From Blasia pusilla (taxonomy: Eukaryota), in the NCBI GenBank assembly GCA_050084515.1, contig CM114271.1:38254001-38318000 (forward strand): a DNA stretch of 64,000 bases. Direction: 5' to 3'. Under the pieces are notes generated by a model that had not been told where the DNA came from, ran no database searches, and saw only the letters and a list, made by a program, of their open reading frames with translations. Position numbers and translations under genes: made by a program. Below are positions 1,992-63,910 of this stretch, in pieces (the first letter of the stretch is position 1; each line of letters opens with the position of its first letter).

Positions 1992-2187
1992 TGTCGTGTG
2001 CATACACATCGCTACACCAGCCACATCGTTGGTCACATCTACACACCACACAACACTCATCTTGACCAACGGTAACCTGCATGCACGGGTTACCAAGTGG
2101 TACCCAAAGATATGAAGTCTCCACCCCAAGAGCGCAACCGTCACCTGACTTTGTCTGCTCCAAGACACAGGCATGGCTCCACGCGTG
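1992..2187 (-). mobile_element. 3' remnant of a related, internally deleted gypsy element (element 3), split off by insertion of element 1
   Basis: On the minus strand it ends ...GATGTGTATGCACACGACA at 1992, matching the B-repeat end of elements 1 and 2. The frame HAWSHAC continues ADELVR from the other side of element 1. Confidence 0.75.
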
Positions 2188-2702
2188 TGTCACGTCTTTT
2201 AGGATAGATCGGTGAGATCTAATAGAGCGCCTTCGTGAGTAGTGGAGGACACGCTCAGTAGATCGCGGATGACCTGTTGAGGCCCCGGGAAACCTGAGAG
2301 AGCACGTTTCCCCTTCGTTTCGGCTCATTTGGAGCCATATTGAGGAACTTACTATTCTAGGTAATTACCATTTTCGATATATGATGGACTTTCTATTTTT
2401 GGTAAGTGGCCCTTGACCTCCTACATCAAGTCAAGAGCCAAGGAGGTGACTTGGGAGAATAGGTTACCATGGAGAGAGCTTGGGAGAGGGGAGGGGTATA
2501 CCTCAAGGAGAGAGAGAGCTTGAGAGCTCATTCTCTCTTTGTTGAACCTCTTGGCATGAGGCGGCGGAGCTATGGTCCCTTGCCTTGTGAGTGTAATCCG
2601 AGCCTCTCATTAGGAGAGTTGGTTTGGTTTGACATGAGAGAGAGTGCACACCTTGGAGAGTTATGGTGTGAGATGGTGTAGAGAGAGATTGGATCTTACT
2701 TT
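2188..2702 (+). repeat. Terminal repeat A1 of element 1 (about 515 bp)
   Basis: Closely similar to 10101-10249 (inverted) plus 10438-10802, and to 52607-53120 and 63288-63800. Confidence 0.93.
2496..2542 (+). promoter_or_regulatory. Putative TATA-like box (2496) and transcript 5' end / self-primer (2527-2542)
   Basis: TATA lies about 30 nt upstream of CTCATTCTCTCTTTGT, which is the exact reverse complement of 2703-2718. The start site is inferred. Confidence 0.6.
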
Positions 2703-2718
2703 ACAAAGAGAGAATGAG
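2703..2718 (+). promoter_or_regulatory. Self-priming-type primer binding site
   Basis: ACAAAGAGAGAATGAG directly after A1 is 16/16 complementary to 2527-2542. No TGG-starting tRNA PBS is present. Confidence 0.75.
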
Positions 2719-4250
2719 AGTAGCTCTAGAGGTTTTACGCGGAGTGGCGCGAGGTTCCGAGGGTCTCCACGTGAGGGACCACCTCGACCTCCTTCTGTGT
2801 CATCGTCAGATGAGGGGGAGGGTGTAGAGGAGTTTGTGAGCACATCGCCACACATTGTGAGTGGTCCTACTAGTTGGGCGTACGAGATGGACGACCGGGG
2901 TAGAGGACCGCGTAGGTTTTCAGTGCGAGGGGCACGATTGAGTTGCACAATTTTATAGCAGAGTTTAGGAGTTGGTGCGACTCCCAGCGGGCCAGGAACT
3001 CTAGAGAGTTCAACCCGTTTATAGCATGGAACGGTATGTTCCAGCATTTAGAGGGAGCGCCCATGGACGATTACCATGAGTTCTCTCAGAGATATGCATG
3101 TGAGATCGAGGCGTGGAGGCTCTACTATGACCCACATTATGTGTCATGGACGGAGCCGTTCCCAGATGAGGAGGAGGAGTCAGGAGAGGCTACAACCTCT
3201 TCCACTAGTGACGTTTTAGGAGGGGTGACTCGACGGGAGCGATTGCACCGTCTAGTCGGGTTCGCCCCGAGTTCAACCCTCGTGGTTGAGTTCTTTCTTT
3301 GAGTTGAGGGCGAGCTACCAGGGGGTACGGACGGAGAAGTTGCGGAGCATCCACGACTTCCAGAGGCGCCCGGGTGAGATTTTGCGTGAGGCTTACACTC
3401 GCTTGCGCCGGTTGATCAACGTCAGTCAGGGGGTGACAGAGGCTCGGGCTATCCAGTCATGGTACGCGATGCTGGACCGGACCCTACGGACACGGGTGTG
3501 GGAGGGGTGCTTCTTATGAACACCTCCCCTACGTTGAGAGATGTTTTTAGGACCGCCGAGAACATTGAGCGCAACATGGCGGAGGAGAGCGTAGCCACCA
3601 TGGGTTCTGGGCGAGAGCACTCACGATTGTCTGCACCACCTGTGCAGCAACGTGGACTCCGAGATAGGTCGAATGTGGCACCACGAACATAGGGAGGATA
3701 CCAGGAGGCCGTGCCACACAGACCTGCGCCTTCATATGCGGCTCAACAGCAGCCGCCTACTATTACTTGTTGGTCATGTGGTGGAGCCCATCATCAGCGC
3801 GATTGCACTCGTCGAGGGTCATGGACGTGTGCCTCAAAGATGAAGGAGGAGATGGTCCGCACAGGAGGTTATCGGTGTGACTATTGTCGAGGTATGGTCA
3901 TACACGCGCCAGGTGTTTGATTTACATCCTCGAGTTACGCCCGGACCGAGGGCGAGAGGGCACCAGAGCGAGTAGCGGTCGGGTGGGCCTAGAGATCGTG
4001 CACCAGGTGGTCCCGTTGGGGACGAGGAGTGGGGTTTCGGCGGGGTAGTGGAGAGCTGCCCGTGGAGGAGGTAGAGTACCACCACCTAGACGCGCCGAGG
4101 GAGACGCGGGACGTGAGCGGGATGGTCGGTCGCTTTCGATATCTGGCCGGTGCAGGAGGAGATTGCCGCTATGGCATTGAGGTTACCCGATGCCGGATCC
4201 GTGGCATCGACATCATATGGAGCAGCCAGAGATCTGGAGGATCCTTGATG
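2719..4250 (+). pseudogene. gag: gag-like region of element 1 (N-terminally deleted, frameshifted)
   Basis: Retrotransposon-gag-like FQRRPGEILREAYTRLRRL. Zinc knuckle CWSCGGAHHQRDC, and a second knuckle that is frameshifted here but reads C-N-Y-C-x-R-Y-G-H-T-R-A-R-C in element 2. Confidence 0.75.
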
Positions 4251-4799
4251 GATGTGCGGGGTTGCCCAAATGGAGGCCGCCGCAGTTGTGACGCGTGGAG
4301 CAGCCATAGAGTTGGATCCACAACGAGGGGAAGCCAAAAGACAGACTAGGCTTCCTCAGTCTTTCACGTTGTCCGAATCGATGAGGACCCCATCGATGGG
4401 TCCTCATCAAAGTTCGTGGAGAGTTGGTAATGTTGTTGGTATGCATGCACGGAGGGCGATGGGAGAAGCGAGTGCGACAACTCCTATTGTTGATGCTCAA
4501 GAGGGGCATGTGTCGAGCACGTTGTTGGGGGCGGCCACTGTTGTGTACCGCACTCCTTTATTTTTTGCTTCCAATGTTATGACGTTGGGGGGTACGCCCG
4601 CCGAGGCTTTTCGGCCGGCCGCTTCACTATGTGAGCGCAGAGTTGGAGTTCCTGCATCACGTTCAGAGGTGATTGTAGAGGAGGTGATGGACCTGCCCTT
4701 GGAGCGGATGCTCGGGCCGTCCACGTCAGATTCATGGCAGGCTACGGCTGCTAGGATGGCGGAGATGCCCGCTAGACCCGCGATAGAGCGTGCCATGGC

Positions 4800-5220
4800 T
4801 TCTCCTGGTGTTGTGTTGCTGGATAACCGAGGAGAGATCTTCCAGTTGGTCAGTCATGGAGGTAGAGCTTTTAGTCCGCAGCGTGTCTTGTTGGATTCAG
4901 GAGCGCAACCCTTGATGTTGGGGAAAGTGTCATTCAGAGGATTGGGCTTGACGAGAGCCGATGTGGAGCGTTGTCCATTCCGGATACAGACATCTTTGGG
5001 TGGAGCGAGTACCACACAGTATATCATCCGCCAGGAGGTCGTGGTGAGGATTTGCCCGGGACATCCTACAGATGAGTGCGTGGTACGCGCCAAGGCGATA
5101 GTGACTGATGCAGAGTCCTACGACGTCTTGGTTGGTAGAGCAGTGTTATACCCGATAGGGGTTTTCCCTGGATTATTGGGAGGAGTCAGCGTCCTCCAGA
5201 CCATGATGGCAGTCATGTGA
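4800..5220 (+). pseudogene. Retropepsin-like aspartic protease, element 1
   Basis: RVLLDSGAQ active-site motif (DSG 4894-4902) and downstream YDVLVG motif. Confidence 0.85.
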
Positions 5221-5608
5221 TGGGCGCCTTAGCTCATTACCCATTCGATTCACAGGTGCAGTGATCGAGCAACGGCCAAGAGAAATGGCGACCTTAGCAG
5301 CATTTAGCAGTGCCATCACTTGGCCTAGTGATTTGATTGAGGGACATGTCCATGCAGAGGATACTCCCGTTCCTGACATTTCTATGGAGAGGAGTGTTAT
5401 GGTAGCTGCATCATTCTATGGAGGAGAGGTGACGCTGTGGGGCTCGACTGAGGAGCTTCAACGAATGGCAGATGAGCACGTGCAGACCGCATGGAGCGAG
5501 GCGTTTGCACCAGAGCGTGACGGGTCTGAGGAACCCGAGGTAGCAAGGAGTGCTACGATGACACCCTTGGATACCACACCCATTGTGTGGTGTACCCCGG
5601 AGGAGGGT

Positions 5609-6520
5609 ATTCGAGTGTTAGATCTCTTTGGAGGGATTAGCACCGGGTTAGCTACTGTTTTGCAGGCAGGAGTGCGATTACAATAGTACCTGTATGTGGA
5701 GAGTGATGATGTTGCAAGGCGCGTCTCACTACGACATGTGGCGCAATTACGCCTACGTTTTCCCGACTTATTATGCATCCCAGCGATCTGGGTACCGAGT
5801 TCCCTACCGAGGGATATTTCGTTGTTGGGGGCGCATGACTTAGAGCGGGTAGGGACCATTGACTTGGTCATTGCCGGTTGGCCATGTCAGGGCCAATCGA
5901 GTGCTGGACGAGGCAGCGGGTTGGCTGTCACTCGGTCCAGGTTGTTTTGGGAGATGTTGAGGGTCTTACGGCGAGCAGAGCACAGATCTTGTTCTCGGCC
6001 TACCTTCTGGAGAATGTGCCGATCTTAGGAGACTCCAGGTCACGGGTGGTGACGAGTGCTCATCAGGTGTGTGCCTGGATTGGCCCAGCAGTGTTCTTGG
6101 ATGCGGCGAGTGTAGGTTCTAGAACCCATCGCCCGCGTCTATGATGGACCAACTTGGTACCCCATGCGGTGTTATGGAGGGCGTATGCGAGAGTGGAGTG
6201 CCCCTCCCATTTTTTAGTGGATTCCATTTTGGATCCATGTCATTGATCACAAGCAGTGAGGCACGATGATCGACCACCGTTGACTGTGGTCAACAGGGTA
6301 GGCAAGCCGCGGGCAGCCTTGCCCACGTTTGTGAGTTTTCCCGCTTCCTATGCATATAAGGAGGCCGGTCCTGGCTTGGTTTGGGATGACCAGGTTTATC
6401 GATTGGTGGAGCCCAACGCCGACGAGAGAGAGCAAGCGATGGGATTTCCCACAGGAGTGATGGCAGTACCATCAGTGTCAGAGGCATCACGACGTCATAT
6501 CTTGGGTCAGGCGATGGACC
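5609..6520 (+). pseudogene. C5 cytosine DNA methyltransferase domain (DNMT3-like) inside pol, element 1
   Basis: Motif I IRVLDLFGGISTG (5609), IV DLVIAGWPCQ (PC 5882-5887), VI YLLENV (6001-6018), VIII HRPRLxWTN, IX EREQAMGFP, X RRHILGQAMD. Interrupted by stops (5684, 6142, 6244) and frameshifts. Confidence 0.92.
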
Positions 6521-6886
6521 TGAACTGCTTGACATGGATCCTAAGCTTGGGAGTGGCTGATCAGCGTCGTATGAGATCGCAACAGATCACAGCTGTTGAG
6601 TTGGTGAGCCCCATGCCTATCGAGATGGTGGAGGCAGTGGCTAGGGGCGAGACCCGAGGAGATCTACGCACCAGGGGAGATCGGGAGAGACACCCTTGGA
6701 CTTCTTGGGATGTTTTGCAGGTACGCAAGGAGATGATAGCCACAAAGATCGGCGTGGTTTGCAACCACGTGGAGGAGATCGAGTTTGCGGTTGGCTGCAG
6801 GAGAGCGGCCGAGTGTTGTTGTTCAAGACGGGGTTGCACCATAGCAACCACCGATACCCACGCCGGAGAGTCCTACCGTAGTCACG

Positions 6887-8270
6887 ATGGAGACTTGGGA
6901 GCCAGATATGGGCCCTAAGTTGACAGGAGGAGAGCGGCGCCGAATACATCAGTTCCTCAAGAGTTATAGGAGCTGCTTTGCGTTTAGCATGGAGGATTTG
7001 GGTACGCTGAAGGGACGAGGGATCCGCATTGAGTTGTCGAGTGATATGCAGATCTTCCGACAACCCTAGGTGTCTGATGATATGGAGAGGGCTCGATTGA
7101 GTAGGAGCCAGGACTTGGTCGGAGCAGGACTAGTGGAGATGTCGCATGGGGAGTATGCATCTGCCACTATCATGCCCGCCAAGAAGGATATGCATGGCAA
7201 CTGGATGGATAGGCGGATGTGTGGGGATTACCGACCTATCAATCGGCAGACGAAGTCCAATAGGTATGCCATGCCCACCCCTGAGGAGATCTTTGATGCG
7301 ATTGGTCACGCAAAGGTCTTCAGTTCATTGGATTTGCGAGCCGGATACCATCAGCTGCCTATCAGATTGGAGGACAGGCAGAAGACGGCATTTTGGGGCA
7401 TCGATCCTCACGGGAAGGATTGTTTGTACCAGTGGCGGTTCTTACCATTTGGGTTAAAGAATGCCCCGGCTGAGTTTCAAAGGGTCATGGATAGGATCTT
7501 GGCTGGTCTGGATTTTGCTAGGTGTTATATTGATGACATCGTAGTCTTTAGCGCCACGGTTGAGGAGCATGAGCAACATCTAGAGGAGGTGTTCCGACGA
7601 TTGTAATTACATGGGCTGAAGCTACATCCAGGCAAGTGCAAGTTCTTCTACGACCAGATTGAGTACTTAGGTCATACAATATACCCAGGGGGCCTTGGTG
7701 TTCAGCAAACGAAGGTAGAGGCTATCTCACGCATTCCACGCCCTACAGATGTGAGTCGTGTTCGTATATTCATGGGATTGGCAAACTTCTATCGGCGATA
7801 CGTCAAGAGATTCAGTTCAATTGCGAAGCCGCTGACCTTGCTGACCAAGGTGGATCACGAGTGGCACTGGGGGGATGAGCAGAAGCAAGCATTTCAGTTG
7901 CTCAAGGACAGGTTGACGTCCGCACCCATCTTGAGGAGACCGATCGGGGCGTCCTTTCGATTGCACACATATTGGAGCATGTTGGGGCTTGGAGCGGTGC
8001 TCACCAAAGATGATGATGAGGGTAGAGAGTTCAGAGTGGCTTACGCTAGCCGCTCGAACAACGCGCAGAGGCGGTAATCTGGCTCGTATGAGGGTGAGTG
8101 CTTGGTCGCGTGTGGGGGTCGCGCATTTCAAGTGTTACTTATTCGGCAACCCTTTTACCATCATCACTGATAATCAACCACTGAAGTGGTTGATGGAGTC
8201 CGACAAGCTTACAGGGAAGCTTGCGAGATGGGCTCTGTTGTTGCAGGAATATGATGGGATGCTCAACCAG
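6887..8270 (+). pseudogene. pol: Reverse transcriptase and RNase H, element 1
   Basis: RMCGDYRPIN, FSSLDLRAGYHQ, LPFGLKNAP, YIDD (7526-7537). RNase H motifs LGAVL, VAYASR, FTIITDNQPL, LARWALLLQEY. Confidence 0.97.
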
Positions 8271-8669
8271 GATGTAGATGGGTTGAGTCGTAACCCATTC
8301 CCGAGTCAGCAAGATGCGACTGGAGCTCGATGGCATGGAGAGAGTGATGAGGAGTCGGTGCGAGGATGGCACACGTCAGCCTATTTAGGCATGTTGGCTA
8401 TGGAGAGCCAGAGTGTGGAGACTTCGATGGCGAGGTCTAGTGGAGAGTCCTTGGATCCCGAGACCAGTGAGGACATGGCAAGTGGCCGAGATATTCATGA
8501 TGATGGAGTAGTCTTGGAGTACCTTCGTACTGGCAGCGTTGCGAGCACGATGGATGCTAGAGAGCGGGATCGGATCCTACAGCGGGCCAAACGGTTCCGT
8601 TGGGAGGGGACACATGTTTTGAGGGTTTGGGAGGATGGTAGAGTACTCGTAGTGCCGCATCCTTTGTAG

Positions 8670-9931
8670 AGAGCACGACTAGTGCAGCATGCCCACGAGG
8701 AGTTGGGTCACTTTGGCGTGAAGCGGACGTACAGCTTGCTCCAGATTCAGTATTGGTGGCGAGGCATGCAGACTGACGTTCAGCAGCTTTGTTGCCAGGT
8801 GCATGGTGTGTGATCGGGTCCGAGCATCATTCAATGCTCCGACTCCTGATTGCATCCGTTACCGATCATGGGCTTAGGGTATAGATGGAGTTTGGATTTT
8901 GCAGGACCTTTGCCCTTGACGGAGCGTCACAGTCGTTATGTGTTGGTGATGGTCGAGCACTTCTCGAAGTGGATCGAGTTGGTTGCATTGCCTGACAAAG
9001 CGAGTGAAGGAGTAGCTTATGCCTTCCTTGACAGAGTGGTGAGTCATTATGGCGCACCGGCTGAGGTGTTGACAGACCAGGAGTACCGAAGTTTCGCGGT
9101 GAGTTCCAGGCCTTGTGTGATCAGGCGCTGATCGACCACCGCACGACTTCGCAAGATCATCCCGGGGCGGATGGATTAGCGGAGAGAGTTGTGCAAACGG
9201 TGAAGAGGGGTTTACGCAAGTATGGCTTGCAGAGAGGTCACCTAGGAGATTGGGACCTCCAGTTGCCATGGTTGGCGATGGGATCTGATTCAGTGAGCGA
9301 GCATCCTTAGCGTCTTTTTCACCGTACTTGCTACTTTATGGCGAGAGCCAGATTTACTGCGCCATTCGTCGAGATCTTTGGTGATTTGCTGGACCTTGAT
9401 GACCCAAATGTATGGGTGCGAGCATGTTCTCAGAGGGCTGAGTTATTTCGGAGAGTGATGCCCATGGCGTTCAAGAACTTGGCGATTGCACAACATCGGG
9501 ATACGTTGAGGTATGCGACTATTCGGGGTGGTGGTTATCGACCAACTATCCGGAGGTTTCATTTGGGAGATTATGTCTACTTGCAGCAGACGGCACCGAC
9601 GACGTTGGATGTGACTGCAGGGCGCACTATCCTGAGAGTGCGTGACATTTTTCCATCGGGTGTTCTCTTGCTGGAGGGACGCAATGGTATGGTATGGAAG
9701 GACCATGTGCGTAATTGTGCACCATGTCACCTTCCTAACATTGATGGTACAGTAGATCCGAGCTTAGCAATAGTTCCTGCAGGCTTGCGTTGTATGTTGT
9801 GTGGTTCTGCCCGTGGTGTGGCCACGATGCTAGTCTGTGATGGGTGTTCGAGAGGATGGCATATGGCATGTTTGACGCCACCTCTCACTAGGGTTCCTAA
9901 GGGAGGATGGATGTGTCCCAGATGTACATAG
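8670..9931 (+). pseudogene. DDE integrase with C-terminal PHD finger, element 1
   Basis: HHCC (HEELGHFG...CMVC) and core WSLDF / VLTDQ / GLAER. C4HC3 PHD finger CMLC...VCDGC..GWH..CL.PPL..VP.G.W.CPRC at 9791-9925, stop at 9931. Confidence 0.95.
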
Positions 9932-10100
9932 AGTAGGTAGTTCTACATTCCGACTTGTGTCTGTGACATGGATGAGAAGAAGGCGACTAACATGGGGCCA
10001 CATGAGCACCCGGCCTTCTTGCTCTTAGCGTCCGAGAGATGTATGTCATGGTAGGTAGGGATAGATGTAAGTTCCTTAATATTGAGGAACTTACTATTTC

Positions 10101-10422
10101 GGCTCCAAATGAGCCGAAACGAAGGGGAAACGTGCTTTCTCAGGTTTCCCGGGGCCTCAACAGGTCATCCGCGACCTACTGAGCGTGTCCTCCACTACTC
10201 ACGAAGGCGCTCTATTAGATCTCACCGATCTATCCTAAAAGACGTGACAGCTGTCGTGCACATACATATCGCTACACAACATACATCGCTGTCACCGAAC
10301 ACACACACAAACACGCATGATCCCATGCTAACTCATGGCATCCAAAAAACGGGAAAAGAAGTACCAAAATATCTCCAATCGCCCCCCTAGTTGGTGGTTA
10401 GGTCCCTCTAACTCCAGATAGC
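10101..10422 (-). other. Inverted segment in the 3' end of element 1 (PPT + B1 + first 149 bp of A2), flanked by 26-bp palindromes
   Basis: Its reverse complement is colinear with about 63116-63436 of element 2. Palindrome TAAGTTCCTCAATATTGAGGAACTTA at 10427-10452 and a 1-mismatch copy at 10068-10093. Confidence 0.9.
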
Positions 10423-10437
10423 AATATAAGTTCCTCA

Positions 10438-10931
10438 ATATTGAGGAACTTACTATTTTAGGTAAGTACCATTTTCAGTATATGATCGACTTTCTATTTT
10501 TGGTAAGTGGCCCTTGACCTCCTACATCAGGTCAAGAGCCAAGGAGGTGACTTGGGAGAATAGGTTACCATGGAGAGAGCTTGGGAGAGGGGAGGGGTAT
10601 ACCTCAAGGAGAGAGAGCTTGAGAGCTCATTCTCTCTTTGTTGAACCTCTTGGCATGAGGCGGCGGAGCTATGGTCCCTTGCCTTGTGAGTTGTAACCCG
10701 AGCCTCTCATTAGGAGAGTGGGTTTGGTTTGACATGAGAGAGAGTGCACACCTTGGAGAGTTATGGTGTGAGATGGTGTAGAGAGAGATTGGATCTTACT
10801 TTGATTGGAGATATTTTGGTACTTCTTGTCTCGTTGTTTGGATGCCATGAGTTAGCATGGGATCATGCGTGTTTGTGTGTGTGTTTGGTGACAGCGATGT
10901 ATGTTGTGTAGCGATGTGTATACGCATGACA
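10438..10931 (+). repeat. Remainder of A2 (10438-10802) and terminal B2 (10803-10931) of element 1
   Basis: A2 part matches about 2337-2702. B2 GATTGGAGATA...GCATGACA matches inverted B1 (10252-10380). Confidence 0.9.
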
Positions 10932-19510: not shown

Positions 19511-21198
19511 AAATTTGCCCTTTGCATTGATCGTCGCAGCCAGAGTGCTTTCGGTTCGTAACGTATTAGTTTTTCTCCGAACCTTGGAGATGAACGTGTT
19601 TATGAACAAATTCATCTCGGGAGCGTATGAAGGGTTGATTGGATGGGTAAATCGCCTATCGATTTTCTTGTTTGTTCTGTAGGGTTATAAGATGATACAG
19701 GCAGAGAATTAGGGGAGGTCTGCCCAGAGTTTTGTGCTTGTTTTTTAAATCCGTAGAGTTGCTTTGCCGGAATGCCTTACGTTTCTTACAATTGGGCCAA
19801 ATCACACTAGTGTCCAATTGATTGCGGTTCTTTCTTAAATAGACGGGGAGTCACTTTTTGTTGCCGCTTTACGTGTATAAGTGTATTCGGTGCCGCATGT
19901 TACTCAGTAATACGTTGTGATTCAGCCTCTGGTGCTTGATTATGTATTTGGTGGGTCAGTTGGTCTCGGTAGTTACCTTCTTCTTGAAATCTCTTTATTT
20001 CCATTGATAAGTTCAGAATATATCGTGAAGGTGTATTAGATGGGTTCTGGTGTTGCATGTGACCATGTCATTCAGAGATTGTCCACCAGTGGTCGATTTG
20101 GAAAGTTGTGGCTCTCGTAGAAGGCTTTCTGATGGGCTCCTCTGCCCCTTTTTTCCTTTGGGTTTCTTTTGTATCGTAAGAATGAACTGAGAATCACTAT
20201 AGAGGTTCTTGCTACATTCGTGAAGATGTAATTATTCGCATGTCACAAAAAGGTTATCTAGTTTGAAGGGTGGAGTGTGGATTGTCTTGATATCCGTTGC
20301 CCTGTAAGTTGCCACCGGGATGTTTCCCATCTCCAACGTTGGCGTCTATTGGGTCTGAGGGGATTGAAGGTAACTTCAATGGCATCTTTTTTTGTGTAAA
20401 AAAAATCATCCATCCACTTTTTGTCGCACTCATCGACAGTAAGTAGGTATCTTATGAACTATATTCTGGGATCATGTGAACACTAAATGCTTATTGTTGT
20501 TAAGGTGTCATCCGTGTAGTTCCCTAAACTGAGTGGATATTGCATTTGAGAATCTAGACATGGTTGGAATACCTTCTTTGTGTCCGTTAAGACAATCATG
20601 AAAAATATAATTTACTAAAAGAGAATCGATTGGGAATTTTCTGGATAGTGGACAACTCTTCTTTGTACAATAGTGTTGATTATGAAGCAAAGCGACGAGG
20701 AGGAAAGGATGCAGAATTGCAAAATTTGGTCACCAAAATTAAGTGTGATGCACGCTTGTAGATTGTTTAGGGTAAGATAGTAAATAGATATAGTATGCAG
20801 TAAAGGAAAGAAAAGGACCTCTTGTTCGGAGAGAACAAAATCTCTAAGGTTCTCTATGGAAATACTTTCTTCATATATGAAGAAAGTATTTTCTTTTCGT
20901 AAAAAGAAAATATTTTTGTGTGAATTGGTTTGATACTTGTTAAATTATGATCTTCATTACTTCATATAAATGAATTAAAATTTTTTTAAATATATTACAA
21001 ACCTCAAACCCATCATCCCTTTGCGAAAAAAAATAAATTCATAAAAATAGGACATCAAAGGAAGAAATATTGCTATAGATATATGCTAGCAAAAGGAAGG
21101 CATTCCAACTATCTTATAGGGTATGTATCGACATGTGATTTGCTTCAAATGTTACTTTAAATGTTACCCATCAAATGGAAAACATTTTTTCTTTTAAT

Positions 21199-52606: not shown

Positions 52607-53120
52607 TGTCACGACTAGTAGGATAGATTGGTGGGATCTAGCAGAGCGTCTGCACGAATAGTGGAGGACAGGCCCAAGATGTCGAGGACGACCTGTTGAG
52701 GCCAGGGGAAACCTGAGAGAGCAAGTTTCCCCTTCGTTTCGGCTCATTTGGAGCCATATAGAGAAACTTACTATTTCGGATAAGTTTCCATGTTGGGGAT
52801 AGTTGACTTTCCACTTTGGGAAGTGGCACTTGACCCGCTATAGTAGATCAAGAGCCAAGGAGGTGACCTGCGAGCATAGGTTACCATTGAGAGGGCTTGG
52901 GAGAGGGAAGGGGGAAAACCTCCAAGAGAGAGAGCTTGAGAGCCCATTCTCTCTTTGTTGAACCTCTTAGCATAAGGCGGCGGAGCTATGGTCCCTTGCC
53001 TTATGAGTGTAACCCAAGCCTCTCATTAGGAGAGTGGGTTTGGTTTGACATGAGAGAGAGTGCACACCTTTGAGAGCTATGGTGTGAGATGGTGTAGAGA
53101 GAGATTGGATCTTTCTTTTA
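52607..53120 (+). repeat. Terminal repeat A1 of element 2
   Basis: Matches A2 at 63288-63800. Followed by ACAATGAGAGATTGAG, a degenerate self-priming PBS. Confidence 0.93.
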
Positions 53121-54640
53121 CAATGAGAGATTGAGAGATCTTCATGGGGGAGCTCCTAGGTCACTCGCTGTTTTTGCAGGTTGGGGACCGTGTACTCCGT
53201 TCAGCGGCTCATGGGAGTGCTCACCGGAGCAAGGGCTACTTTGATTGTTCTTTGCATTTGCCGATTTTTCGTGTGGAAGAGTGGCGCGCGGAAGCGCTGC
53301 CCAATTTCAGATAGGGATTGATTATGGGGGCGGGTCGCCCCCTGCTTCCGCTCTTGGGAGCACCATGTAGCTTTCTGATTTGTATTTTTACAGGTTTTAC
53401 ATTTTTTTGGAGAAATCAGCGCGGAAGCGCTGCCAAATTTTGTGTAGGAGAAAGAGACATTTGGCTTTACAACAATCCCTGTCAGTTTTTACTTGAATGT
53501 TCAATTCTAAATATATTTTGACATTGTTGTAGATCGCAAAGTTGTGCATGCTGTGCAACAAACAATGTGCAATTTGGAGTTTTGAGCAAAAAGTTATGGT
53601 CAATCTTGAAAAATTGCCATTACTAGGCGATTTTTAGGGTTAAATTGTTCAAACCCTAAACCAACCGCCACACCGGCAGTGGCTGTCGCCGTCATAGTCA
53701 CCGGTCAATGGTCAACCATCATTGTCAATGGTTCACCATCCATTGTCCACCCTTTGGTTGCCATTGCCGCCATTACGGAATGGAGGGTCTTCCACGACGT
53801 TCGTTGATTCTCTAACTTGCGTCGCCACCACGTACTTTGTTTAGGCCGCCACCGTCATCGCAATTTTGTCATCAACTAGTGATGGAAGATGACCTACGGT
53901 TATGGTGTTTGAGTTTGATTTCATGCTGCTATGTTATGATTGGTAGCCGCTCGATGAAGATCGAGTACCGTGCCGTGACGCCTGTAGCCGCAACGCCGCC
54001 GATTGCTGCGCTGTGCCGCTCGTGGCCCAACCACACTGTCTCGATCGTGGAACCGCTCCTTCACTAAGGAGCAGAGTGTGTGAATTTTTGATTGAGGAGG
54101 GTATGCTGCCGAGTGCCGCTCCCCATTCCCGAGTGCCGTGTTGTTTGTAGCCGTTCCGTGCCCCCAGTGCCGCACAGGACCGCTCGACCTACACCGCACA
54201 TCGAGGAGGTTGAGTAGCGTCAGTACGAGAGGAGTACGACTTGCTAATTGGAGGAGTTCTCTTCACGACCAAGTTGGGGTCGAGATTTGCAGTTGCTGAG
54301 GAGCGACATCGATATGTGTTCAGGTTACCCATTCTGGTCCTTTACACTGCACGTGTGAGGGATTCTGGGATTTGGGTAGTTTATTTGGGGATATTGGGTT
54401 GTGTGGATGTTGAGAGCATCATTCATGTATGTGGTTTAGGGGACATAGACCTGTGTGAGATGTCCGAAGTTGAGGGTAGGTTATCGATGAGATGATAGCC
54501 TCGTCGATTTGCCGCACCATGCCGCGTGTTGTCGCACGTTACACGTCTCGGGGAGGGAGAGTGTAGATTGAGTGCCGCATGTTTGGGATAAGTGATTGAG
54601 GGATAACTCATGAGGTTGAGAGTGATCGGGTGAGAGGGGC

Positions 54641-57600
54641 ATGAGGGTCATCACGGCGTTCGTTCGGGACTTTGAGAGGCGAGGTGGTGAACCGGAGAGT
54701 AGCTCTAGAGGTTTTACGCGGAGTGGCGCGAGGTTCCAAGGGTCTCCACGTGAGGGACCACCTCGACCTCCTTCTGTGTCATCGTCAGACAAGGGGGAGG
54801 GTGTAGAGGAGTTTGTGAGCACATTACCACACATTGTGAGTGGTCATACCAGTTGGGCATACGAGATGGACGACCGGGGTAGAGGACCGCGTACGTTTTC
54901 AGGTACAGTAGGCACGATTGAGTTGCACAATTTCATAGCATAGTTTAGGAGTTGGTGCGACTCCCAGCGGGCCAAGAACTCTAGAGAGTTCAACCCGTTT
55001 ACAGCATGGAACCGTATGTTCCAGCATTTAGAGGGGGCACCCATGGACGATTACCATGAGTTCTCTCAGAGATATGCACTTGAGATCGAGGCTTGGAGGC
55101 TCTACTATGACCCACATTATGTGTCATGGACGGATCCGTTCCCAGATGAGGAGGAGGAGTCATGAGAGGCTACTTCCTCTTCCACTAGTGACATTTTAGG
55201 AGGGTTCACTCGCACTAGAGCAGTTGCACCGTCTAGTCGGGTTCGTCCTAGATTCAACCCTGTGGTTGAGTTCTTTGCTGAGTTGAGGTCGAGCTATCAG
55301 CGGGTACGGACGGAGAAGTTGCGGAGCATCCACCACTTCCAGAGGTGCCATGGTGAGAGTTTGCGTGAGGCTTACACTCGCTTGCGCCAATTGATCAACG
55401 TCACTCAAGGCGTGAGAGAGGCTCAGGCTATCCAATCATGGTACGCGATGCTGGACCGGACCATACGGACACGAGTGCGGGAGGGGGTGCTTCTTATGAA
55501 CACCTCCCCTACGTTGAGAGATGTTTTTAGGACCGCCGAGAACATTGAGCACAACATGGCGGAGGAGAGCGTAGCCACCATGGGTTCTAGGCGAGAGCAG
55601 CCACGATTGGTTACACCACATGTGCAACAACGTGGACTCCGAGATAGGTCGATTGTGGCACCACGAGCTCAGGGAGGATACCACGAGGCCGTGCCACAGA
55701 GACGTGCGAGCTCACCAGCAACCGCCTACTATTACTTGTTGGTCATGTGATGGAGCCCATCATCAACGCGATTGCACTTATCAGGGTCATGGATGTGTGC
55801 CTTAACATGGAGGACGAGATGGTGCTACGCCAGGAGGTTATCAGTGTAACTATTGTTAGAGGTATGGTCATACACGCGCCAGGTGTTTCAATTTACATCT
55901 TGAGTTACGTCCGGACCGAGGGCCAGAGAGGGCACCAGAGTGAGTAGCCGGTCTAGGTGGGCTAGAGATCGTGTACCAGGTGGTCCCGTAGGGGGACGAG
56001 GAGCTGGAGTTGCTCGACAGGGTGGTGGAGCTGCCCGTGGAGGAGGTAGAATACCACCATCTAGACGCGCCGAGGGAGACGCCGGACGTGAGGCTGGGAT
56101 GGCTGCTCAGATACAACAACTACAGGAGCAGATTACCGCTATGGCATTGAGGTTACCCGATGCCGGATCCATGGCATCGACATCATATGGAGCAGCCAGA
56201 GATATGGAGGATCCTGGTTGGATGTGCGGGCTTGCCCAGATGGAGGCCGCCGCAGTTGTGACGTGTGGAGCAACCGGAGAGTTGGATCCACAACGAGGGG
56301 AAGCCAAAAAATAGACTAGGCTTCCTCAGTCTTTCACATTGTCCGAAGCGATGAGGACCCCATCTGTCACAACCCTCATAACCAAACAACACCAAATAGG
56401 CGCCAAGCGAAACATCAAAACTCAGAGGAACTCACGTTGCGAGGTTTGCGCTTTGGAGAGGCGTTTGGATAAGTCTCTTGGAAAAGTCTAAGAGACAAAA
56501 CGCGGAATAGAGTTGTGTGTTTCATACGTTAGTGGTCGCGACCAAGAAATCTAGAACAAACGCGAGCCAAGACTTGAGATGAGTTGAGTCTTGGGAGGTT
56601 GGTTGCCAAAGAGGTGAGAACCAGTTTGGAACACGACTAGCGTTTGGGAGAATCTGATTGTGTGTAGGACCATAACGTTGAGCTCCAAGATGCGTTTGGG
56701 ACAAATAAGGGTGCGTTGGAAAGCTGATCTTAAGACACTTCTAATGCACTAAAGATATCAGAAAACACATAAGTACAGGCTAAATATTGGCCAAAAACGA
56801 TTGAGACATCAACTGGATTGAGGGCCAATTGGAGAGGCCCGTGTGTCTTTCCCTAAATGTAGGGGGCCCCCGGAGATCCCTAGAAGTACTAGTAAGGTAG
56901 GAGTCTCTCCGAGATGTCTCGGGAAATGAATCCCCACTTTGGGCGCCAAACGGCATTTCAGAGGCACGGGATGGAACGGGAGTTTGGCGTGGGAACTCAA
57001 AACCCAAACCTGATCCAAGGGAGTGGACTTTGTATGCCACATTTGGATCCCAACCCGAGATTCACTTTGTGTGAGTCTTGATGAGGAACTCATTGGATGT
57101 CCATCGGACAGTTGGAACCGCTAGGCGCGAAACGCCGTTTCAGGTTCCTGAACCGACTAGAAAGTCTGCCCCAAGTCTTTCGAGATTTTCCCGTGTTGTA
57201 AACCGCGAAACTAGGAAGGTTCAGCTTGATGAGAGTCCGAGACGAGAACTCGGAAAGTAATCCCGCTGATTGATCCAAGACCCGACTAACCAAAGTGCGT
57301 GTTTGGATGCAGATCAGCGTTGAGAGCGTGACCTACTGAACGCACGCTTCCGCAACAAACAAGATTAACGTTCAAGGAGAGTAGGCGTACGACACCATCG
57401 ATGGGTCCTCATCAAAGTTCCTAGAGAGTTGGTGATGTTGTTGGTGTGCAAGCATGAAGGGCGATGGGAGAAGAGAGTGCGACGACTCCTATTGTTGATG
57501 CTCAGGAGAGGCATGTGTCGAGCACGTTGTTGGGGGCGGCCACCACTGTGTATTGCACTTATTTCTTTTCTGCTTCCGATGTTATGACATTGGGGGGTAC

Positions 57601-58260
57601 GCCCGCCAAGGCTTTTCGGCTGACCGCTTCACTATATGAGCGCGGAGTTGGAGTTCTTGCATCACGTTTAGAGGTGATTGCAGAGGAGGTGATGGTCCTA
57701 CCCTTGGAGCGGATGCTCGGACCGTCCACGTCAGATTCATAGTAGGCTGCGGCTGCTAGGATGGTGGAGATGCCCGCTAGACCCGCGATAGAGCGTGCCA
57801 TGGCTTCTCTTGGTGCTGTGTTGCTGGATAACTGAGGAGAGGTCTTCCAGTTGGTGAGTCCCGGAGGTAGAGCTTTTAGTCCGCAGCGCATCTTGTTGGA
57901 TTCAATAGCGCAACCCTTGATGTTGGGGAAAGCGTCATTAAGAGGATTGGGCTTGACGAGAGCCAATGTGGAGTGTTGTCCATTCCGAATACAGACATTC
58001 TTGGATGGAGCGAGTACCACACAGTATATCACCTGACAAGAGGTCGTGGTGAGGATTCGCCCAAGACATCCTACAGATGAGTCTGTGGTGCGAGCCAAGG
58101 CAATAGTGATTGATGTAGAGTCCAACGACGTCTTGGTTGGTGGAGCAATATTATACCTAATGGGGTTTTCCTTGGATTACTGGGAGGAGTCAACGTCCTA
58201 CAGACCAAGATGGTAGTCAAGTGATGGGTGCCTTAGCTCATTACCCGTTCGATTCACAGG
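54641..58260 (+). pseudogene. gag and protease of element 2, interrupted by a solo LTR
   Basis: Colinear with element 1 2719-5220. Knuckles CWSCDGAHHQRDC and CNYC*RYGHTRARC (55845-55886); protease RILLDSIAQ. Confidence 0.85.
56365..57394. mobile_element. 1030-bp solo LTR (or non-coding LTR-type insertion) nested in element 2
   Basis: TGTCAC...CGACA ends, perfect 5-bp TSD CCATC (56360-56364 / 57395-57399), and absent at the homologous site of element 1 (about 4390). Confidence 0.9.
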
Positions 58261-58612
58261 TGCAGTGATTGAGCGACGGCCAGGAGAGGTGGCAAGCTTA
58301 ACAACATTTAGCAGTGTCATCACTTGGCCTAGTGATTTGATTGAGGGACATGTCCATGCAGAGGATACTCCCGTTCCTGACATTTCTATGGATAGGAGTG
58401 TTATGGTAGCCGCATCATTCCGTGGAGGAGAGGTGCCGTTGTGGGGCTCGATTGAGGAGCTTCGACGATTGGCAGATGAGCACGTGCATACCACGTGGAG
58501 CGAGGCGTTTGCATCGGAGCGTGACCGGTCTGAGGAACCCGAGGTAGTAGGGAGTGCTATGATGACACCCTTGGATACCACATCCATTGTGTGGTGTGTC
58601 TCGGAGGAGGGT

Positions 58613-59530
58613 ATTTGAGTGTTAGATCTCTTTGGAGGGATTAGCACCGGGTTAGCTGCTGTTTTGCAGACATGAGTGCGAGTGCAGCAGTACTTGTATG
58701 TGGAGAGTGATGATGTTGGGAAGCGCGTCTCACTACTACATATGGCATAGTTATGCCTACATTTTCCCGACTTATTTTCTGCGTCCGCGGTACAAGGGTA
58801 TTAGAGTTCCCTACCGAGGGATATTTCGTTGCTGGGGACGCAGGACTTAGAGCGGGTAGGGACCATTGATTTGGTTATTGCCGATTGGCCATGTCAGGGC
58901 CAATCAAGTGCTGGACGAGGCAGTGGGTTGGCTGACACTCGGTCCAGGTTGTTTTGGGAGACGTTGAGGATCTTACGGCAGTTGCAAGAGCACCAATCTC
59001 ATTCTCCAGCCTACATTCTGGAGAATGTGCCGATCTTAGGAGACTCCAGGTCACGGATGGTGACGAGTGCTCATCAGGTGCGTGCCTGGATTGGCCCAGC
59101 TGTGTCCTTGGATGTGGCAAGTGTAGGTTCTAGAGCCCATCGCCCGCGTATATGGTGGACCAACTTGGTGCCGCATGCGGTGTTACGGAGGGTGTATGCG
59201 AGAGTGGAGCACCCCTCCCATTTGTTAGTGGATTCCATTCTAGACCCAGGTCGTTGATCACAGGAAATGAGGGACGATGATCGACCATCGTTGACTATGG
59301 TCAACATGGTAGGCAGGCCGTGGGCAGCCTTGCCCACGTTTGTGAGTTTTCCCACTTCCTATGCATACAAGGAGGCCGGTCCTTGCTTGGTTTGGGATGA
59401 CCACGTTCAGTGGTTGGTGGAGCCCAACGCCGAAGAGAGAGAGCGAGCGATGGGATTTCCCACAGGAGTGACGGAAATATTGTCAGTTTCAAAGGCATCA
59501 CGACGCCATGTCTTGGGTCAGGGATGGACC
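58613..59530 (+). pseudogene. DNMT3-like methyltransferase domain, element 2
   Basis: VLDLFGGISTG, IDLVIADWPCQGQS, YILENV, AHRPRIWWTNL, ERERAMGFP, RRHVLGQ. Confidence 0.92.
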
Positions 59531-59901
59531 TGAACTGCTTGACATGGATTCTCAGCTTGGAAGTGGCTGAGCAGCGCCATATGAGATCGCGACAGATCAC
59601 AGCGGTTGCGTTGGTGAGACCTATGCCCACCGAGACGGTGGAGGCAGTGGCTAGGGGCGAGACCCTAGGAGATCTACACACCAGGGGAGATCAGGAGAGA
59701 CACCCTTGGACTTCTTGAGATGTTTTGCAGGTACGCCAGGAGATGATAGCCACAGCATCGAGCGTGGTTCCAGGCACTGCACGTGGAGGAGATCAGAGTT
59801 TGCAATTGGTTGTAGGAGAGCGGCCGAGTGTTGTTGTTCGAGACGGGGTTGCACCATAGCAACCACCGATATCCGCGCCGGAGAGTCCTACCGTAGTCAC
59901 G

Positions 59902-62900
59902 ATGGAGACTTGGGAGCCATATATGGGCCCTAAGTTGACAAGAGGAGAGTGGCGCCGGATACATCAGTTCCTCAGGAGTTATAGGAGCTGCTTTGCGTTT
60001 AGCATGGAGGATTTGGATACTCTTAAGGGACCGGATATCCGCATTGAGTTGTCGAGTGATACGCCAATCTTCCGACGACGCTACAGGTACAGTGATATGG
60101 AGAGGGCTCTGATTGAGAGTAGGAGCCATGATTTGGTCGGAGCAGGATTAGTGGAGATGTCACATGGGGAGTATGCATCTGCCGCTATCATGCCCGCCAA
60201 GAAGGATGTGCATGGCAACTGGACGGATAGGCGGATGTGTGGGGATTATCGACCTATCAATCGGTAGACAAAGTCTTATAGGTATGCCATGCCCACTCCT
60301 GAGGATATCTTTGATGCGATTGGTCACGCAAAGATCTTCAGTTCATTGGATTTGTGAGCCGGATACCATCAACTGCCTATCAGATTGGAGGACAGGTAGA
60401 AGACGGCATTTTGGGGCATCAATCCTCACGGAAAGGATTGCTTGTACCAGTGGCGATTCTTACCATTTGGGTTAAAGAACGCCCCGGCTGAGTTTCAGAG
60501 GGTCATGGATAGGATCTTGGCTGATCAAGATTTTACTAGGTGTTATATTGATGGCATCGTAGTCTTTAGCGCCAAAGTTGAGGAGCATGAGGGACATCAA
60601 GAGGAGGTGTTTTGATGCTTGCAATTACATGGGCTGAAGCTACATCCAGGCAAGTGCAAGTTCTTCTACGACCAGATTGAGTACTTGGGTCATACGATAT
60701 ACCCAGGGGGCCTTGGTGTTCAGCAGACCAAGATAGAGGCTATCTCACTCATTCCACGCCCTACAGATGTGAGCCGTGTTCGCGCATTCATGTGATTGGC
60801 AAACTTCTATTGGCGGTACGTCAAGGAATTCAATTCGATTGTGAAGCCGCTAACATTGCTGACCAATGTGGATCACGAGTGGCACTGGGGGGATGAGCAG
60901 ATGAGCATTTCACTTGCTCAAGGACAGGTTGACGTCCGCGCCCATCTTAAGGAGACCGATCAGGGGGCGTCCTTTCCAGTTGCACACAGATTGGAGCATG
61001 TTGGGGCTTGGAGTGGTGCTCACCCAGCATCATGATGAGGGTAGAGAGTTCGTGATGGCTTACGCTAGCCGCTCAAACAATGCTGCAGAGGCGAAGTACA
61101 ACTCGTATGAGGGTGAGTGCTTGGGTGCAGTGTGGGCTGTCGCACATTTCAGGTGTTACTTATTCGGAAACCCCTTTACCATCATCATTGATCATCAACC
61201 ACTGAAGAGGTTGATGGAGTCCGAAAAGCTTACAGGGAAGCTTGCGAGATGGGCTCTATTGTTGCAAGAGTATATTTTCATGTGGTACATAGACCTGGGA
61301 CGCTCAACCAGGATGCATATGGGTTGAGTCGTAACCCATGCCGAGTCAACAAGATGCAACAGGATCTCGATGGCATGGAGAGAGTGATGAGGAGTCAGTG
61401 CCAGGATGGCACGCGTCAACCTATTTAGGCATGTTGGCTATGAAGAGCCAAAGTGTGGAAACTTCCATGGCGAGGTCTAGTGGAGAGTCCTTGGATCCCG
61501 AGGCTAGTGAGGAGATGACATGTGGCCAAGATATTCATGATTATGGAGTAGTCTTGGAGTACCTTCGTACTGACAGCGTTGCGAGCACCGTGGGTGCTAG
61601 AGAGTGGGATCGGATCCTACAACGGGCTAGACGGTTCCGTTGGGAGGGGACACATGTTTTGAGGAATTGAGAGGATGGTAGAGTACGCGTAGCGCCGCAT
61701 CCTTCACAGAGAGCACGACTAGTGCAGCATGCCCACAAGGATTTTGGTCACTTTGGGGTGAAAGCGGAGGTACAGCTTGCTCCAGATTCAGTATTGGTGG
61801 CGAGGCATGCAGATTGACGTCTAGCAGTTTGTTGCCAGGTGCATGGTGTGTGATCGAGTTTGAGCATCGTTCAATGCTCCGACTCCACAATTGCATCCAT
61901 TACCGGTCATGGGCTTAGGATATAGATGGAGTTTGGATTTTGCAGGACCTTTGCCTTTGACGGAGCGTCATAGTCATTATGTGTTGATGATGGTCAAGTA
62001 CTTCTCGAAGTGGATCGAGTCGGTTGCATTGCCTGACAAAGCGAGTGAGGGAGTAGCTTATGCCTTCCTTGATAGGGTGCTGAGTCATTATGGTGCAACG
62101 GCTGAGGTGTTGACAGACCAGAGTATCGAGTTTCACGGTGAGTTCCATACCTTGTGTGATCAGGCATTGATCGACCACTGTACAACTTTGCGAGATCATC
62201 CTGAGGCGGATGGATTAGCAGAGAGAGTTGTGCAGACGATGAACAGGGGTTTACGCAAGTATGGCTTGCAGAGAGGTCACCTAAGAGATTGGGACCTCCA
62301 GTTGCCATGGTTGGCGATGGGATACAGATTCAGTAGGCAGGCATCCTTAGCGTCTTTTTCACCGTACTTGCTACTTTATGGCCAAGAGCCAGATTTACCT
62401 GCGGCCATTAGTCGAGATGCTGATGAGGTGCCGGACCTTGATGACCCAGATGTATGGATGCGAGCATGTTCTTAGAGGGCTGAGTTGTTTTGGAGAATGA
62501 TGCCCATGGCGTTCGAGAACTTGGCAATTGTGTAGCATCGGGATACGTTGAGGTATGCGACTATTCGGGATGGTGGTTATCGACCAACTATCTGGAGGTT
62601 TCATCAAGGAGATTATGTCTACTTGCAGCAGACGGCACCGATGACGTTGGATGTGAGTGCAAGGCGCACTATCCTAAGAGTGCGTGATGTTTTGCCATTT
62701 GGTGTTCTCTTGCTGGAGGGACGCGATGGTATGGTATGGAAGGACCATATGTGTAATTGTGCACCATGTCACCTTCCTAACATTAATGGCACAGTAGATC
62801 TGAGCTCAGCAATAGTTCCTGCACGCTTGCGTTGTATGTTGTGTGGTTTTGCTCGTGGTGCGGCCACAATTCTAGTCTGCGATGGATGTTCGAGAGGTTG

Positions 62901-62973
62901 GCATATGGCATGTCTGACGCCACCTCACACTAGGGTTCCTCGAGGACGATGGATGTATCCCAGATATACATAG
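59902..62973 (+). pseudogene. pol: RT, RNase H, integrase and PHD finger of element 2
   Basis: RMCGDYRPIN; YIDG (mutated YIDD); FQLHTDWS..YSYEGECL; WSLDF/VLTDQ/GLAER; PHD at 62833-62970 with last Cys pair mutated to Tyr. Many stops. Confidence 0.95.
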
Positions 62974-63149
62974 AGGAGATACTAGGTAGGTTTTGATTCC
63001 GAATTTTTCTATGACATGGATGACAGGAAGCGACTAACGATGGGGCCACATGAGCACCCGGCCTTTTTGCTCTTAGTGTCCTAGAGATGTATGTCGTGGT
63101 AGGTAGGGATAGATGGCTATCTGGAGTTAGAGGGACCTAACCACCAACT

Positions 63150-63910
63150 AGGAGGGCGATTGGAGATATTTTGATACTTCTCCCTGTGTGTATGGATGCC
63201 ATGAGTTAGCATGGGATCGTCTGTGTTTGTGTGTGTGTTCGATGACAGTGATGTATGTTATATAGCGATGTGTATGCGCACAAAAATTGTCATGATTGTT
63301 AGGATAGATTGGTGGGATCTAGCAGAGTGTCTACACGAGTAGTGGAGGACATGCCCAAGAGGTCGACGATGACTTGTTGAGGCCCCGAGAAACCTGAGAG
63401 AGCAGGTTTCCCCTTCGTTTTGGCTCATTTGGAGCCATATAGAGAAACTTACTATTTCGGATAAGTTTCCATATTGGGGATAGTTGACTTTCTACTTTTG
63501 GAAGTGGCACTTGACCCGCTACAGTAGGTCAAGAGCCAAGGAGGTGACCTGCGAGCATAGGTTACCGTTGAGAGGGCTTGGGAGAGGGAAGGGGGTATAC
63601 CTCCAAGAGAGAGAGCTTGAGAGCTCATTCTCTCTTTGTTGAACCTCTCGGCATAAGGCGGCGGAGTTATGGTCCCTTGCCTTGTGAGTGTAACCCAAGC
63701 CTCTCAATAGGAGAGTGGGTTTGGTTTGACATGAGAGAGAGTGCACACCTTTGAGAGCTATGGTGTGAGATGGTATAGAGAGAAATTGGATCTTATTTTA
63801 TTGGAGATATTTTGGTACTTCTCGCCTCTGTATATGGATGTTATGAGTTAGCATGGGATCGTTTGTGTTTTTGTGTGTGTTCGATGACAACGATGTGTAT
63901 GCGCACAACA
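63150..63910 (+). repeat. 3' end of element 2: PPT-like AGGAGGGC (63150-63157), B1 (63159-63285), 2-nt spacer, A2 (63288-63800), B2 (63800-63910)
   Basis: B1 and B2 both read ATTGGAGATATTTTG.TACTTCTC...GATGTGTATGCGCACAA(C/A)A; A2 matches A1. Confidence 0.93.

Follow-up and report, generated by a model that had tools for sequence, protein, structure and literature searches.

In Chlamydomonas reinhardtii, REM1 is reportedly grouped with Gypsy-7a_cRei as a Gypsy element that carries a PHD finger. For Gypsy-7a_cRei, the available text of PMC9940879 places this finger in Gag-Pol, and it suggests targeting away from genes for Gypsy-7a_cRei/REM1, with intergenic insertions at 2.6 times the expected number. 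PHD fingers are described as common in retrotransposons in the available parts of PMC6673714 and PMC8557442, and PHD–transposon fusions, which may include elements such as the one described here, are tabulated in a supplement to bioRxiv 10.1101/2021.11.30.470311. Chromoviruses likewise carry a chromatin reader at the integrase C terminus, behind an SH3-like barrel; the REXdb classification, in its available text, contains no PHD lineage (PMC6317226). A DNMT3-type enzyme is known from KnitGypsy-Dnmt3 of Klebsormidium nitens (de Mendoza et al. 2018; available text of PMC5890265), which combines the Gypsy domains with a Dnmt3-related methyltransferase and DIRS-like A-coding-B-A-B repeats; the Klebsormidium enzyme was inactive in yeast, a result called inconclusive there. 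Streptophyte Gypsy-DNMT3 elements are also named in the accessible part of bioRxiv 10.64898/2026.05.21.726589, whose EpiLTRs unite a reader and a cytosine methyltransferase in one LTR element, as is the case here.

The window analyzed here—the whole stretch of 64,000 nucleotides from the Blasia pusilla genome—contains two copies of one element, about 89% identical to each other and both broken by stops and frameshifts (Table 1). The first copy, at 2188–10931, is defunct and belongs to a high-copy Ty3/Gypsy family. Its domain order is gag, protease, DNMT3-like methyltransferase (DNMT), in-frame TAG, reverse transcriptase (RT), RNase H, integrase, and PHD finger. The class assignment is based on the order protease–RT–RNase H–integrase, the TG..CA ends, and the target duplication. 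The methyltransferase region matches the C5 cytosine methyltransferase family PF00145, and its best solved-structure matches are DNMT3A and then DNMT3B (E 1.6e-5 for the window piece and 1.5e-7 for an open-frame relative), in agreement with the DNMT3-like enzyme named in a first-pass annotation of this DNA. In copy 1, about 1.5 kb of the leader is missing downstream of the primer-site position. Inverted terminal repeats were considered and rejected as an effect of an inversion private to copy 1 (about 330 nt, 10068–10458), whose bounding 28-nt stretch is duplicated and itself nearly palindromic. Copy 2 contains an unrelated 1-kb insertion between gag and protease (56365–57390).

Table 1. Coordinates of element features in the window
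Feature	Position	Strand	Remark
Left 4-bp target site duplication, copy 1	2184..2187	+	CGTG; right duplication CATG at 10932-10935
Repeat A, 5' end of copy 1	2188..2702	+	begins TG
16-nt stretch inside A, exact complement of 2703-2718	2527..2542	+	putative self-priming
Primer-binding-site position	2703..2718	+	not tRNA-like
Broken gag region with zinc-knuckle motifs	2716..4394 (approximate limits)	+	
Aspartic protease region	4738..5160	+	match to residues 958-1098 of relative P0121
DNMT3-like C5 cytosine methyltransferase, broken	5600..6549 (approximate)	+	motifs at 5621 (FGG), 5876 (PC), 6007 (ENV), and 6130
Conserved in-frame stop TAG, then CAACCA	6842..6850	+	CARYYA readthrough-type context
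Reverse transcriptase and RNase H, broken	6878..8255	+	
DDE integrase, broken	8500..9790 (start approximate)	+	H2C2 zinc finger, core, SH3-like C-terminal barrel
PHD finger (C4HC3) and stop codon	9791..9931	+	ligand pattern, Pfam, fold match
Inversion after insertion, copy 1	10101..10428	-	purine tract, inner B, first 149 nt of 3' A
Remaining 3' repeat A (10438-10802) and terminal B (10803-10931)	10438..10931	+	ends CA
Copy 2 of the element	52607..63910	+	target duplication ACTC/ACTC
Decayed PHD finger of copy 2	62833..62970	+	31.1 bits; Tyr replaces the last two Cys
3' end of copy 2	63150..63910	+	purine tract 63150-63158, B 63159-63285, 2-nt spacer, A 63288-63799, B 63800-63910

Both copies sit inside other transposons, as had been recognized in the first-pass annotation. 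Copy 2 splits a Helitron, with Helitron_like_N on its right side and PIF1 on its left; this decayed Helitron (Rep and PIF1 helicase) lies on the minus strand at 50500–52606 of the window and at L117:1–2900. The host of copy 1 is an older, internally deleted relative on the opposite strand with CGTG/CATG flanks; it occupies about 1990–2187 and 10932–13600 (minus strand) and shows gag–protease and then a B end at about 64% identity. Elsewhere in the window, a DUF4371 fragment, presumably hAT-type, is found at 15619–16101 (minus strand), a degenerate array of 200–320-nt repeats at 21173–22220, and a pair of long open frames (374 and 286 codons) without Pfam match at 29459–31444 (minus strand).

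In translation, the integrase frame 9311–9931 has a complete C4HC3 PHD finger as its last domain, directly followed by the stop codon. A finger of this kind at the end of pol had been proposed from the first reading together with a search by the PF00628 profile, and this search gives 43.8 bits (E 2.7e-11; curated cut-off 24 bits) with all eight zinc ligands present. A structure model of 9506–9928 (mean pLDDT 75.8) consists of a five-strand barrel and then the PHD finger, which superposes on the PHD fingers of DPF2/3, ATXR5, BAZ2A/B, and BHC80 at 0.5–1.4 Å. The decayed finger that had been placed in copy 2 was recovered as well. The finger lies at the integrase C terminus and so does occupy, as had been stated, the position of the chromodomain in chromoviruses; neither a chromodomain (PF00385) nor an ADD family matches the PHD-bearing window frame at E ≤ 0.1 in Pfam.

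A query with the integrase tail and the PHD finger retrieved 184 longer relatives. Among the 120 of these that were listed, 118 contain PF00628 and none contains a chromodomain. Their named sources are Marchantia, Calypogeia, Sphagnum, Coleochaete, Pleodorina, Tetrabaena, Tetradesmus, and Hariotina. The closest named relatives among the matches listed are proteins of Marchantia (81%) and Calypogeia (76%), and no sequence labeled K. nitens is among the relatives returned. In a quick RT–RNase H tree of 46 rows, which contained no reference chromoviruses or other Gypsy outgroups and in which L068 is a frameshifted alignment to be disregarded, all 38 PHD rows form one clade (SH-aLRT 100) that stands apart from the eight chromovirus-type rows of the Blasia pusilla genome. 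This clade comprises a streptophyte-type group (support 82, inner 99), which includes the window family and has the DNMT before RT where it is seen, and a chlorophyte-type group (support 98) with the DNMT before the integrase. With a profile of nine DNMT segments, the enzyme was detected in 23 of the 40 relatives covering both RNase H and integrase; in 21 it lies between these two domains and in two before RT. Most of the remaining 17 begin too late to cover it; one of them, P0055, is covered from protease through PHD with the DNMT undetected. The integrase–PHD unit thus appears to mark an old green-plant lineage that mostly also carries a DNMT, at two different positions.

The idea that the PHD finger had been swapped in for a chromodomain is not supported by this comparison. 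A chromovirus with a swapped domain was rejected on domain content and RT distance: the window family appears to belong to a separate Gypsy lineage, lacks the chromodomain and PF24626, and shares only 30–39% RT–RNase H identity with the genome's own chromoviruses. These chromoviruses have ordinary full LTRs and clustered matches, whereas the window family has neither. Several annotated "PHD-type domain" genes of Marchantia polymorpha (P0002, P0005, and P0160–P0165) are fragments of this retrotransposon lineage, and PHD gene counts in that species may be inflated by them. The algal-type long-tailed relatives extend 50–490 residues beyond the PHD finger; in P0093, this tail has a weak match to a Tudor family (PF21743, under cut-off), a possible second reader.

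In the window family, an in-frame stop separates the methyltransferase from RT in all 25 aligned copies (24 TAG and 1 TAA), and in 23 of these CAACCA directly follows; the copy 2 equivalent of this motif lies at 59857–59865. In tobacco mosaic virus, readthrough occurs in the context CARYYA, according to the available text of PMC7026636. Hence, the main product would be Gag–protease–DNMT, with RT–integrase–PHD made by predicted readthrough. Such a stop would also account for the many relatives whose predicted proteins, of about 1,040 residues, begin just upstream of RT. Relative P0121 contains every domain in a single 2,811-residue frame. KnitGypsy-Dnmt3 differs herein, as its DNMT is placed in the same ORF as RT (available text of PMC5890265).

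The pairing of PHD finger and methyltransferase had been likened in the first-pass annotation to the ADD-plus-catalytic design of DNMT3. In the DNMT3 ADD module, a GATA-like and a PHD-like finger lie directly N-terminal of the catalytic domain, whereas the order is reversed in the element, with the PHD finger about 3,200 nt downstream of the DNMT and a stop and three enzymes between them. No ADD family or structure is among the matches listed for the Pfam, solved-sequence, and structure comparisons, and the shift of the DNMT between sublineages and the case of P0055 also speak against such a design. Because of the conserved stop and about 1,100 intervening codons, an ADD-like coupling of DNMT and PHD is unlikely in the window family. 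As an analogy, it may hold loosely, in that both modules may read unmethylated H3K4, and it would be more plausible for the chlorophyte members, where DNMT, integrase, and PHD are adjacent. Host DNMT3s of land plants and algae without an ADD are described in the available text of PMC12344493.

The nearest solved sequences to the finger are CHD4, KMT2C/D, PHF12, KDM5 PHD1, DPF, ATXR5, and BHC80. We take the solved PHD neighbors (CHD4, KDM5 PHD1, BHC80, and others) to be mostly readers of unmethylated H3K4, and the position of the H3K4me3 aromatic-cage Trp to be two residues before the His ligand. The window finger has a Gly at this position, and Trp is found there in none of the 99 relatives with the full pattern. 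The earlier remark that PHD fingers of this type commonly read the H3 tail can hence be made more specific: by its nearest solved PHDs and the absent cage Trp, the finger appears to belong to the class of unmethylated-H3K4 readers. With known members of this class (KDM5 PHD1, BAZ2A/B, CHD4, BHC80, and ATXR5) it shares the fold, the spacing, the missing cage Trp, and the Asp after the third Cys; the C-terminal P-x-G-x-W loop typical of H3 N-terminus readers is also kept. It differs from them by the lack of an acidic wall and by its net basic charge. This wall is an Asp or Glu five or six residues before the third Cys, as defined in the available text of PMC5415848; the window family has Ala or Val there, and its finger contains one acidic residue in total. 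Among the relatives, 52 of 71 with a long tail have the wall, as do 7 of 28 with a short one, and the median net charge of the finger is −4 in the long-tailed and +1 in the short-tailed group (p=3e-9). According to the same text (PMC5415848), neutralizing the acidic patch before strand 1 of BAZ2A cut binding 17-fold, and the acidic wall residue is missing from fingers to which H3 binds in extended or bent form.

With neither an H3K4me3 cage nor the acidic residues that the algal relatives keep, the finger probably reads unmethylated H3 weakly, and, being basic and devoid of the residues whose loss weakened BAZ2A, it may have no affinity for H3. The basic streptophyte finger could have ceased to be a histone reader and instead bind DNA or RNA—target DNA, the circle junction described below, or genomic RNA—or only stabilize the integrase. 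The single acidic residue, the charge and wall differences between short- and long-tailed relatives, and the lack of regional targeting (see below) agree with this explanation, which we nevertheless consider rather improbable, given the retained Asp and P-x-G-x-W loop, the fingers that bind H3 without an acidic wall, and a weak pass in co-folding with H3. In the latter, the finger, host H3 1–30, and two zinc ions scored 0.50, as opposed to 0.02 for the best of three controls, in a run without an alignment of our own; the runs agree in at least 90% of contacts, and the partner pLDDT is at least 55. Among solved pairs, 51 of 78 reached the mark, as did 2 of 108 mismatched pairs, and scores up to 0.60, which comprise 5 of the 78 solved pairs and all 4 passing mismatches, are more often wrong than right. 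Since PHD–H3 complexes are already solved, the co-fold weakly suggests likeness to solved complexes, as opposed to binding.

That the finger is a mere passenger with no function left in the window family seems highly unlikely. Of 25 copies chosen by their repeats, 10 have lost a zinc ligand, as have 2 of 5 from random regions, and pN/pS of the finger is 0.92 within an unselected copy set, as a passenger would have it; ligand loss of this extent, however, agrees with neutral decay after insertion. Between two copy sets, pN/pS is 0.37 (few substitutions, and one set picked by protein likeness), which may be a weak sign of selection while the element was active, and most relatives, from chlorophytes to liverworts, retain the zinc ligands.

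Based on 36 evenly spaced 10-kb samples of the 390-Mb genome, the family covers 10.8% of it at ≥80% identity (bootstrap 5–17%) and 16.9% in all; six PHD copies per 360 kb sampled correspond to some thousands per genome. Of 12,583 candidate loci, 150 were scored, and every one is at least 87% identical. The 187 top copies—top-scoring matches, not randomly drawn—track chromosome length (p=0.51) and are Poisson-distributed in 5-Mb bins (variance/mean 0.85), whereas 150 chromodomain matches are clustered (variance/mean 1.68, p=0.0004 in 5-Mb bins; 1.18, p=0.07 in 2.5-Mb bins). Along the chromosomes, the two are not correlated (rho −0.04). Pericentromeric or regional clustering of the family was not seen; the family seemed to be missing from C5 beyond 29 Mb, but this gap is unreal, with family DNA in three of four sampled regions there. 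True chromoviruses are also numerous in the genome, with 1,636 chromodomain candidates (L131–L160), clustered for example at C2 36–50 Mb.

A usable 3' flank was available at 42 of 58 loci. Repetitive flanks were found at 24 of the 42, compared with 156 of 360 control windows of all sampled DNA (p=0.10), and at 19 of the 42 when compared with 36% in 40 even samples (p=0.18). With family matches excluded, the numbers are 18 of 36 and 92 of 296 (p=0.04, uncorrected, with a database tilted to transposon neighborhoods). The flanks are slightly AT-richer than the control (GC 0.41 versus 0.43, p=0.008), and CpG depletion, as a proxy for methylation, shows no difference from the control (0.55 versus 0.60, p=0.11; pooled 0.63 versus 0.66). 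Chromovirus flanks, used as a positive control, were repetitive in 7 of 11 cases, a small sample. The small repeat-flank excess matches what a loss of genic insertions would give.

Heterochromatin targeting had been proposed on first reading, and in its full form this explanation has the PHD finger steer the integrase into heterochromatin as an ADD-like partner of the DNMT, such that new copies are methylated at once in silent DNA. ADD domains also read unmethylated H3K4. The nesting of both window copies in transposons, the co-occurrence of PHD and DNMT across the lineage, their placement in one frame in 21 relatives with the DNMT directly upstream of integrase–PHD, and the mild repeat-flank excess are in its favor. 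It is opposed by the random chromosomal spread and the missing correlation with chromodomain matches, by a flank excess that is not significant against the region-level control, by the lack of an ADD match, by the stop and three enzymes between DNMT and PHD, and by P0055 with its PHD finger alone. We regard it as unlikely. By these position and flank proxies, which have low power, the copies are randomly spread with flanks not significantly more repetitive than controls, so that neither the targeting claim nor a clear preference for silent chromatin is supported.

The repeats are laid out as A-internal-B-A-B, and the 3' end reads B-A-B in most of 60 loci. Both ends were found in 15 of 20 copies fetched upstream, all with TG..CA ends and a 4-bp target duplication (14 exact) that shows no sequence preference; of the other five, one is nested with unpaired ends and four have no 5' end in reach. 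The A-repeat pair differs at 10 of 513 bases in copy 1, at 33 of 507 in copy 2, and by 1–5% in most full copies fetched, which are top-scoring matches. B starts immediately 3' of the purine tract (50 copies), and A ends just before a stretch whose 13–16-nt complement sits inside A in 9 of the 11 copies with an anchor (five further copies lack it). In copy 1, this complement is 16 nt long (2527–2542 versus 2703–2718), as in self-priming elements; Tcn1 chromovirus elements self-prime too. With the purine tract before B and the primer site after A, reverse transcription should yield an LTR of B+A, the ends of which differ from the inserted ends.

The inner B|A joint reads CA-NN-TG, with a purine–pyrimidine spacer in 46 of 52 copies. 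A decayed GC palindrome as the only origin of this 2-nt spacer was rejected because it differs from GC in 39 of the 52, more often than decay of inserted copies would by itself produce. The outer A|B joint is variable: among 36 copies, 25 are flush, nine have one extra A, one has two extra bases, and one has 18 that end like the purine tract. This is the pattern expected from end-joining to a two-LTR circle that is then cut at B|A. Taken together, the repeat anatomy would agree with an element that primes its own reverse transcription and integrates as a two-LTR circle. Three copies (L002, L017, and L025) end cleanly at the first B, as other circle openings would give; their 5' ends were looked for and not found, and two of these copies lie within other members of the family. 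Variant layouts include a tandem through B-A (L022), B-A followed by leader (L042 and L052), and a solo A-B (L118:2518–3166). A DIRS-type (DIRS/Ngaro) element, which the split repeats had suggested, was ruled out by the DDE (rve) integrase and the 4-bp duplications, and no tyrosine recombinase family is found in P0121, with the 1.5-kb leader checked for ORF length only.

As a whole, an old PHD–integrase Gypsy lineage with a usual DNMT, readthrough, circle integration, and weak H3 docking explains these data best, and with some reserve we hold it to be the probable account. Translation would yield Gag–protease–DNMT, to which occasional readthrough of the TAG would append RT–RNase H–integrase–PHD. 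The element RNA would prime its own reverse transcription into linear DNA with an LTR of B+A; the linear ends would be joined to a circle, which the integrase would open at CA-NN-TG between B and A and insert to give A-internal-B-A-B with a 4-bp duplication. The PHD finger, attached to the integrase, would dock weakly on nucleosomes via the unmethylated H3 N terminus and at most steer the integrase off H3K4me3 promoters, not toward heterochromatin blocks. The DNMT would be a separate protein, most likely acting on the element's own DNA and not activated by the PHD finger. A bolder version, possible but decidedly tentative, is that the lineage has a chromatin kit of its own. The integrase would bear a reader of unmethylated H3K4, and a DNMT3-type writer, fused immediately upstream of integrase–PHD in the chlorophyte members, would accompany it; instead of linear DNA, the integration substrate would be a self-primed two-LTR circle opened at its internal CA-NN-TG site, and the DNMT would methylate this circle or the fresh insert. 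If true, this would be a natural retroelement with an obligatory circle substrate, a form that is a dead end for retroviruses.

Each piece of the element has a precedent, and the finger alone is unsurprising, as PHD fingers in algal Gypsy elements are already in print. Compared with KnitGypsy-Dnmt3, for which the text and searchable supplements of PMC5890265 do not mention a PHD finger, the window family has thousands of copies and relatives also in chlorophytes, with the DNMT elsewhere in the order. Gypsy-7a_cRei, compared by its description, has no DNMT reported in the available text of PMC9940879 and differs in length and LTR description. The EpiLTRs combine a chromodomain, an adenine methylase, and a DNMT4-related enzyme (accessible part of bioRxiv 10.64898/2026.05.21.726589), whereas the window family has a PHD finger and a DNMT3-like enzyme. 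A search that left aside subscription papers, Repbase entries, and theses found no paper that joins PHD and DNMT3 in Gypsy elements, places such elements in bryophytes or chlorophytes, or explains the repeats. Worth following are the lineage-wide pairing of PHD and DNMT3-like enzyme, the charge change, the readthrough stop, and the circle-type repeats.

Should the range of the lineage be as broad as its homologs suggest, DNMT3 capture by Gypsy elements would be an old green-plant feature and not a Klebsormidium oddity. In Blasia pusilla, a DNMT-carrying Gypsy family has built more than one-tenth of the genome. The acidic algal and basic streptophyte fingers form a natural, ready comparison, and the repeat anatomy predicts a circle as the integration substrate. 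With thousands of dated copies and chromoviruses in one genome, PHD-steered integration—a long-standing guess—becomes directly testable.
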